Source: Negaprion brevirostris | Taxonomy: Eukaryota | Assembly: GCA_030324005.1 (NCBI GenBank) | Contig: JARDVH010000193.1 | Location: 40,093,951-40,157,950 of the forward strand | Direction: 5' to 3' | Length of the DNA: 64,000 nucleotides | Part shown: piece by piece, positions 40,700 to 41,550 of the stretch | Layout: every line of letters begins with the position of its first letter | Position numbering within the stretch: position 1 is the stretch's first letter | The notes under the pieces: model-generated | The model's input: only the letters and a program-made list of their open reading frames with translations | Told to the model about the DNA's origin: nothing | Database searches by the model: none | Program-made: the position numbers and the translations under genes

Positions 40700-41550
40700 T
40701 TGAGTTGCCCGGGATCGCTAATAAACATAGCGAGTGAGTGACTTACCCCGGCAGGACGGGACGCTCCAAACTACATTGCCCCGCTTTAAAGACGTTGACT
40801 AGTTGGGAATAGTTCATCTTGCGGTGAATGAGAGTTGGAATAAAAGCCGCCGCCGAGGTCAAGCACTGCCGTCTCCAAGGGTGACGGACGGTGCTTGAAC
40901 TCAGCCGCGCGCGCGCCACGCTTCCGGTCGCCCGGCCTGCTGCCTTGACAACCGAGTCGGGCGAAGCGGACGTGACGCCGGGGGAAGGTCCGCGCGCAGA
41001 CTGGGCGGAGTTTGAGGTGCCATCCACACTGTTCCGCCCCCTTCCCTCCCTCCGACCCGAGCGTCAGCAGCAGTCGTCTCCCCGTCATTGGCTGGAAAGC
41101 TATGCAAATGAGTAAGCGAACTAACCAATCAATGGGAAGAGGCGACACTCTCGTCCTCCGCCCTTGTCCCCTCTCCGGAGCAGACGCGCACTGCACGTCG
41201 GGATTTGTAGTTTTTCTTGCCACGCTAGAACTACACCTCCCGGCACAGCTCGCGCCTCACAGGTACTCCTGTCACTCAAGCTTCCCTGGAAGTGTTTGGA
41301 GGTGCAGTCGGAGTCGTGCTACCTGCACAGCGCTTTACAGCGGCTCCTTTCGCTTGAGTTTATGCGTAATGCAAGCGCAAGGATACTTAAAGGAGTGGAG
41401 CTCGGAAAGATGGTGGCTTTGCAAAGTATCATGTGCAAAGATCAAACGCAGCGAGTCCTATTTAAGGTGCCACGATGCGCAATTGCAATGCCCGAGACCT
41501 CGTGCAGCGAAAGCAAATGTGAAGAGTTGGATACATTTAGTGTGAATACC
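40700..41550. promoter_or_regulatory. CpG-island promoter with housekeeping/bidirectional motifs
   Basis: High CpG density; inverted ZNF143/SBS-type motifs GGGATTTGTAGT 41200-41211 and ACTACACCTCCC 41230-41241; CCAAT boxes 41087-41091 (-) and 41125-41129 (+); octamer ATGCAAAT 41102-41109; GC boxes 41003-41008 and 41034-41039; ETS core CTTCCGG 40921-40927. Confidence 0.8.
40747..40900 (-). pseudogene. Candidate first exon of a divergent Sowah-derived/CRNDE-position transcript (5' end approximate)
   Basis: Strong donor GG|GTAAGT (40747/40746) just downstream of the CpG promoter on the minus strand. The frame reads LIHRKMNYSQLVNVFK, resembling the Sowah N-terminal K-V-x-N-S-E-L-V-x-x-F-K motif, at the expected syntenic position. 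Confidence 0.5.

Follow-up and report, generated by a model that had tools for sequence, protein, structure and literature searches.

Exon 1 of a decayed intron-containing Sowah copy beside Irx5 in the shark Negaprion brevirostris, with canonical splice sites and a likely non-coding transcript

The closest described systems to the locus reported here are the intron-containing Sowah genes that lie beside Iroquois (Irx) genes. Pseudogenised Sowah remnants next to Irx genes have already been published (Maeso et al. 2012, as cited in PMC5803294, PMC3342872 and PMC12311624), and preservation of the locus by Irx regulatory elements within Sowah introns is established for Irx-Sowah blocks in the accounts given by PMC5803294 and PMC12311624. 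Also described are lncRNAs from lost coding genes, among them XIST/LNX3, JPX/USPL and FTX/WAVE1, as presented by Hezroni et al. 2017 (PMC5577775). Both kinds of locus are known. In human, the lncRNA CRNDE is reported to start ~2 kb from the IRX5 start and its snoRNA-like element to have the box C AUGAUGA (PMC11291168), while an ultraconserved element in CRNDE intron 4 is described as conserved to zebrafish (PMC3509318).

We analyzed a stretch of 64,000 nucleotides of the N. brevirostris genome on contig C193 (hereafter the window). We conclude, with high confidence, that an intron-containing Sowah copy neighbouring Irx5 has its exon 1 here; that this copy no longer has an open reading frame, has canonical splice sites at all nine mapped exons and is spliced in a related species; and that it is likely transcribed as a non-coding RNA from the original CpG promoter. 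The Irx5 coding region lies at 48858..50896 on the plus strand, as identified from open reading frames and a Homeobox_KN match (E 3.4e-08), and its ATG at 48858 is head-to-head with exon 1 at a distance of ~8.0 kb. The closest paralogue of this gene is an Irx2-type gene on contig C132, and we use the name Irx5 because the CRNDE element, described below, adjoins it. Irx-linked intron-containing Sowah genes are placed between an Irx2/5-type and an Irx1/3-type gene. An Irx3 homeodomain was not found in the 974 kb examined (C193 39.18-40.16 Mb) nor genome-wide, and Irx3 is likely masked, in a gap or further away. The cluster and paralogue labels used here (IrxA, IrxB, Irx7) are those we presume to apply.

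Exon 1 occupies 40747..40883 on the minus strand, where it is covered by a spliced contig of sequencing run X1, the end of that contig providing its 5' limit; the stretch is single-copy within the genome. Its frame reads SAAAFIPTLIHRKMNYSQLVNVFKAGQCSLERPVLP, and the donor GG/GTAAGT follows directly after 40747. The letters, the frame, the ATG at 40817 and the donor were all present as the original prediction described them, including ACG GCA GTG CTT GAC CTC at 40872 (minus strand). However, that prediction took the ACG for a possible former ATG start, and this placement failed. The N-terminal MTSA of P0041, a protein from another shark, instead fits TTG ACC TCG GCG (LTSA), which puts a TTG (40860..40862, minus strand) at the ancestral start-codon place. 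A start at ACG/TAVLDL was ruled out, with a BLOSUM score of -5 against MTSA compared with 15 for LTSA. Nor was there the 5' frameshift proposed after TAVLDL: TTG 40862 is already in frame with the second piece, and the real frameshift lies at the junction of exons 1 and 2, where 4 extra bases precede the donor and 2 are missing in exon 2 (lengths deduced from the P0041 protein and the phase of the paralogue). Relative to P0041, exon 1 has also lost four residues in one in-frame deletion and three in another, which removed Gly-Gly, as had been predicted for the GG of the Sowah motif. The secondary ATG (40815..40817, minus strand), aligned with an Ile of the orthologue, has an A at -3 and begins a frame of 40 codons that runs across the used splice to a stop in exon 2.

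The region at 40884..41250 (minus strand) is a putative TATA-less CpG-island promoter of the pseudogene, assigned from sequence words with its start site unmapped. The CpG island at 40700-41300 has a GC content of 0.59 and a CpG o/e of 1.02. Words in the promoter region include ACTACA at 41211, CCAAT at 41129 and 41091, GC boxes at 41163 and 41039, TCACGT at 40975, CCGGAA at 40927 and GCGCGCGC at 40916, and there is no TATAA within 40884..41250. The predicted retention of promoter and splice donor is supported as far as a promoter-like CpG island is present and the donor is used in the X1 contig.

The likeness to Sowah had been judged by eye over ~16 residues. Aligned to P0041, the exon 1 frame scored 72, a value reached by 0 of 5000 shuffles (mean 16.8, sd 3.4, maximum 38), and this was the best match in 604 kb on both strands (72 vs 43 for the next). 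Searching with P0041 by tblastn also recovered exon 1 (E 0.008). In contrast, alignment of exon 1 to paralogous Sowah was not significant, with 1316/5000 and 706/5000 shuffles scoring as high, and both tblastn and frameshift-aware alignment with paralogous Sowah exon 1 gave no match at the window. A profile of 187 Sowah N-terminal domains, built without P0041, left exon 1 outside the top 10 in 604 kb. A Pfam scan of four exon 1 frames, using a library without PF25877, returned nothing at cut-off, and the best ESM Atlas score with the exon 1 frame, 0.77, was uninformative. The resemblance is therefore correct by way of P0041 but is not demonstrable from the family motif alone; likewise, the suggested tBLASTn and HMM check succeeded with the orthologue and found nothing with paralogue queries or the 187-sequence profile. 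The prediction of a decayed Sowah exon 1 is supported, with homology to P0041 (22/37 residues), a lost start and the Gly-Gly deletion. Rfam gave one tRNA match in the window and nothing else; a tRNA match at 35742-35812 (56 bits), by an N stretch and a retroelement fragment, is possibly the head of a SINE.

P0041 is Heptranchias perlo XP_067853670.1, a protein of 257 aa with PF25877 in its precomputed annotation (the names PF25877 and SOWAHA are taken from database entries). It was the one protein among 1654 candidates found with the exon 3 frame as query, at 84% identity, and its own two best genome-wide matches are exons of the pseudogene. Identities to P0041 are 22/37 in exon 1 (20/35 in a second alignment), 14/20 in exon 2, 56/68 and 14/18 in exon 3, 8/14 in the 3' part of exon 5 and 28/34 in exon 6. 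The N-terminal winged-helix domain (PF25877) is present in P0041, whose sequence exons 1-3 match. P0041 is an automatic model that ends after exon 6 and is ankyrin-less; this truncation may be an annotation effect, because the Heptranchias models of the intact Sowah paralogue also end shortly after exon 6. In a quick tree P0041 grouped with intron-type vertebrate Sowah proteins (SH-aLRT 94), a position that is unsure because of its long branch (2.6). As judged from sequence, P0041 is the open-frame orthologue of the pseudogene. Since Heptranchias keeps such a model, coding was probably lost in the lineage of N. brevirostris after sharks diversified. Exon 3 is 82% identical to Heptranchias and the same exon of the working paralogue 54% (65/121), whereas exons 1 and 2 are 59% and 70% identical and those of the working paralogue 81% and 95%. 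This pattern fits lost constraint on the protein in a region that changes slowly or is dense with enhancers. Amino-acid-level conservation with Heptranchias also extends to intronic bases ahead of exon 6.

The view of a lone, partly decayed exon proved too narrow, as exon 1 is the head of a ~503-kb gene with at least nine recognisable exons. We mapped 9 of 11 expected exons on C193, all on the minus strand and in order. In the window, intron 1 (38429..40746, 2318 nt, GT..AG, its joint seen in one contig of run X1) is followed by exon 2 (38369..38428, 60 nt), which has AG/GT ends and an in-frame TAA. Exons 3 (C193:40049142-40048889) and 5 (C193:39832735-39832674) each have a -1 frameshift, and exon 6 (C193:39815650-39815549, 102 nt) contains a TAA. 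Exons 7 (C193:39772903-39772892, 12 nt, located by demanding AG/GT), 8 (C193:39714447-39714361, 87 nt) and 9 (C193:39699037-39698965, 73 nt) are open, and exon 10 (C193 from 39631921) has a +2 shift and a TGA, with its donor assigned to a GTAAGT 98 nt on. The C-terminal ankyrin-repeat part is thus represented by exons 6-10. Exons 4 and 11 were sought on C193 and not found, in intervals containing 17% and 12% N. A last-exon match at ~10420-10570 of the window (plus strand, score 63 vs 45 for the next) is on the wrong strand and in the wrong place and was treated as chance. Lengths of exons 6-9 equal those of the intact Sowah on contig C121 (102, 12, 87 and 73 nt), while exons 2, 5 and 10 differ by 2, 1 and 2 nt (exon 2, 60 vs 62).

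The introns are retained while the reading frame is not intact: there are at least seven disabling lesions, in six exons. The start has become TTG, exons 2 and 6 each contain a TAA, the frame shifts by +4/-2 where exon 1 meets exon 2 and by -1 in both exon 3 and exon 5, and exon 10 combines a +2 shift with a TGA. Each of the 17 splice sites mapped is AG or GT, and 8/9 donors begin GTAAG. Two nonsense changes in 765 nt give a rough neutral divergence of ~0.07-0.08, at which all 34 splice bases would survive by chance with a probability of ~0.07-0.09. Because of this chance survival, and because exon 7 was found by demanding AG/GT, the survival of the splice sites does not significantly support selection.

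To follow splicing, we aligned four sequencing runs to 38300-41700. None of the runs containing this stretch is on record as RNA. One 214-nt contig of run X1 (depth 3.7) joins 40746-40883 to 38368-38427 and ends in 16 loose letters; it skips a GT..AG intron of 2318 nt, joining 40747 to 38428 (limits shift by one base). All of these letters (16/16) fit the first bases of exon 3, 83 kb further on, a place unique in 604 kb when 2 mismatches are allowed. The contig is confined to exon bins (4/30). X1 comes from another, related species and we guess it to be RNA; the other three runs are unspliced across the stretch. Thus, the pseudogene is spliced from exon 1 to 2 to 3 in a related species, in a single contig of one of four runs. 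The splicing predicted at 40747 is seen in that contig, where the donor is joined to exon 2. Compared with the window, X1 has 4 other letters in 138 and no gaps in exon 1, has none in exon 2, and carries the exon 2 stop. Run X2, which may be the source sample, matches both exons of the window letter for letter, without gaps. Among the rows listed, exons 1 and 2 are free of gaps in X1, X3 and X5 (two other organisms). Exon 2 is unchanged in X1, and in X3 and X5 among the rows listed, within a stretch that has differences at 87/3401 places (2.6%).

The same genome has an intact intron-containing Sowah on C121, with 11 exons and an open frame of 443 residues. Downstream of it, in tandem, is an Irx1-like gene, recognised from the start of its homeodomain, a layout that mirrors the one in the window. 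The copy in the window is a separate intron-containing paralogue, belonging to the IrxB cluster. Additionally, there are four single-exon SOWAH loci (on C110, C1, C97 and at 121.2 Mb of C193). A pattern search with the Sowah motif gave 62 matches (71 in a reversed control), and among 30 examined two were Sowah. In the IrxA interval no Sowah remnants were found at E 0.3 in 670 kb of ~1 Mb (17% N); the genome-wide Sowah searches had low sensitivity, missing even the known exons 8-9. The intact gene has a small alternative exon (C121:24611726-24611761) that occurs in catshark and white shark isoforms. Separately, Sowah proteins with several isoforms from two caecilians, the axolotl and the coelacanth (P0080, P0094, P0100 and P0079) group with the intron-type shark gene, and amphibians may retain intron-containing Sowah, contrary to the cited view of tetrapod loss.

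The original prediction placed this exon at the CRNDE position, and here it held: the CRNDE ultraconserved element lies inside intron 2 of the pseudogene, on the same strand and divergent from Irx5. We located the shark counterpart at 27990..28530 on the minus strand, with 140 N inside, from published primers and by-eye runs (the limits are by eye). Two of four published CRNDE primers match the window, at 28276-28296 with 0 mismatches and at 28196-28215 with 2 (chance mean 0.01 each), while the other two have no match, and long identical runs are visible by eye between the published element and 28530-27990. A 52-nt core of the element recurs at C132:99354846-99354895 (83%, E 1.4e-5). It is upstream of the Irx2-type gene by 20.6 kb, which equals the spacing in the window. 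A paralogous core at equal distance suggests an Irx element older than CRNDE. The unmasked part of the shark element (140 N being masked) contains no RTGATGA box C word and has ATGTTGA at 28414; because this departs from the human box C, AUGAUGA, the element may have preceded its snoRNA-like role. By eye, shark exon 1 shares a 9-letter word with the end of a first exon of human CRNDE, and shark exon 2 loosely resembles the human exon preceding the element; we gave neither any weight.

On the basis of position, what remained of this Sowah gene is the likely ground on which CRNDE formed. A fuller version of this idea is that CRNDE is the descendant of a lost Sowah ohnologue, having taken its promoter and first exons from Sowah, with the element as an older Irx enhancer of intron 2 that was duplicated with the Irx clusters; this we put forward tentatively, at somewhat short of even confidence. 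The locus had been predicted to be a protein-gene-to-lncRNA intermediate. A disabled, spliced copy is indeed present, but the term overstates the case, as the shark decay is probably parallel to, and not ancestral to, the history of CRNDE, because one shark (Heptranchias) keeps the frame open. If CRNDE does descend from Sowah, a gene-to-lncRNA transition would have taken place twice at one locus, and living sharks would still show two of its stages, coding gene and spliced pseudogene. In the Sowah, Iroquois and CRNDE literature covered by our search (including PMC5010895 and PMC4433331; Maeso et al. 2012 and its supplements fall outside that scope), we found no CRNDE-Sowah link. CRNDE, SOWAH, C5orf38 and IRX5 are absent from four supplementary files of PMC5577775, and CRNDE from its main text.

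A history consistent with these results would begin with a Sowah copy that arose in the vertebrate genome duplications. The copy would have been dispensable given the intact intron-containing Sowah and four single-exon SOWAH genes, while Irx enhancers within its introns would make the locus impossible to delete. The broad CpG promoter facing Irx5 presumably keeps firing, and any full-length RNA, its frame from ATG 40817 ending after 40 codons, would be subject to nonsense-mediated decay. Human CRNDE would lie in the 5' part of the same transcription unit, with a likely separate coding loss in the bony-vertebrate line.

The alternative that survives best holds that the RNA is a functional lncRNA under selection and truly orthologous to CRNDE, which would have taken over the promoter and first exons of Sowah, with splicing kept for local Irx3/Irx5 control or for delivering the element. 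This is possible, and we give it a minority share of our belief. Strand, the side of Irx5 and the intronic place of the CRNDE element agree in both, and the 17/17 canonical splice sites and the unchanged exon 2 (among the rows listed, in a stretch differing at 87/3401) point the same way; however, 0/60 changes in exon 2 is within chance at 2.6%. The 82% identity of exon 3 to Heptranchias, vs 54% in the functional paralogue, would also suit a selected RNA, but intronic bases before exon 6 are conserved as well, and slow regional evolution may account for exon 3. The human start is reported ~2 kb from that of IRX5 (PMC11291168) vs ~8 kb to the ATG here, so the CRNDE promoter may be a newer divergent start; such lncRNAs are described as often using a new promoter (Hezroni 2017, PMC5577775). 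The unmasked shark element also lacks the RTGATGA box C word.

That a short product is still made, either from ATG 40817 (a peptide of 40 residues) or from the TTG (a truncated winged-helix protein), is very improbable. The ATG has an A at -3 and 40 codons across a used splice, and the Heptranchias model is itself truncated and ankyrin-less, but this ATG stands at an Ile of the orthologue and its frame departs from the Sowah frame past exon 1. The two deletions take a helix-1 segment and the Gly-Gly motif, and the exon 1 frame is without Pfam support (PF25877 being outside the library) or Atlas support. Lastly, assembly errors in a functional Sowah gene are hardly credible and largely refuted for exons 1-2, since against a fragmented assembly (96185 contigs) and the open-frame model in another shark stand the identity of X2 (perhaps the source sample) over both exons, the absence of gaps there in X1, X3 and X5 among the rows listed, the exon 2 stop shared by X1, seven lesions across six exons and, as weak evidence, an exon 3 search that found no protein of Mustelus or another galeomorph though their other Sowah was found.

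The reading we prefer, a decayed Sowah copy whose RNA is likely non-coding, gives an example of a bystander gene in a regulatory block that has lost coding while its promoter and splicing are kept. It suggests a likely origin for a much-studied cancer lncRNA, CRNDE, and gives age and context to its ultraconserved element, which lies in Sowah intron 2 and has a paralogue in the other Irx cluster. Now that many shark genomes are public, the order in which start codon, frame and splice sites were lost can be tested directly.

In its general type, the locus resembles XIST and JPX, with coding loss buffered by paralogues and transcription kept at a syntenic place; like JPX, the shark pseudogene has a short ORF in its first exon. 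In contrast to that type, any function of the shark RNA is putative. Like CRNDE, as described in PMC3509318 and PMC11291168, the pseudogene is divergent from Irx5 on the same strand and has the ultraconserved element in an intron. The two differ in scale, the human unit spanning ~10 kb from a start ~2 kb from IRX5 in the published description while the shark unit lies ~8 kb away with exons over ~503 kb, and in the box C, AUGAUGA in human (PMC11291168) vs ATGTTGA in shark. The closest system remains the Irx-linked intron-containing Sowah, which belongs to the same family and has intronic conserved non-coding elements and probably the same place in an Irx cluster. Its C121 copy shares intron positions and phases with the pseudogene, with exons 6-9 equal in length and exons 2, 5 and 10 within 1-2 nt. 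Maeso et al. 2012 reportedly used elephant shark data. Compared with the published Sowah remnants, the pseudogene described here keeps a CpG promoter, nine exons and a spliced RNA, and one shark has an open-frame model of the same gene.
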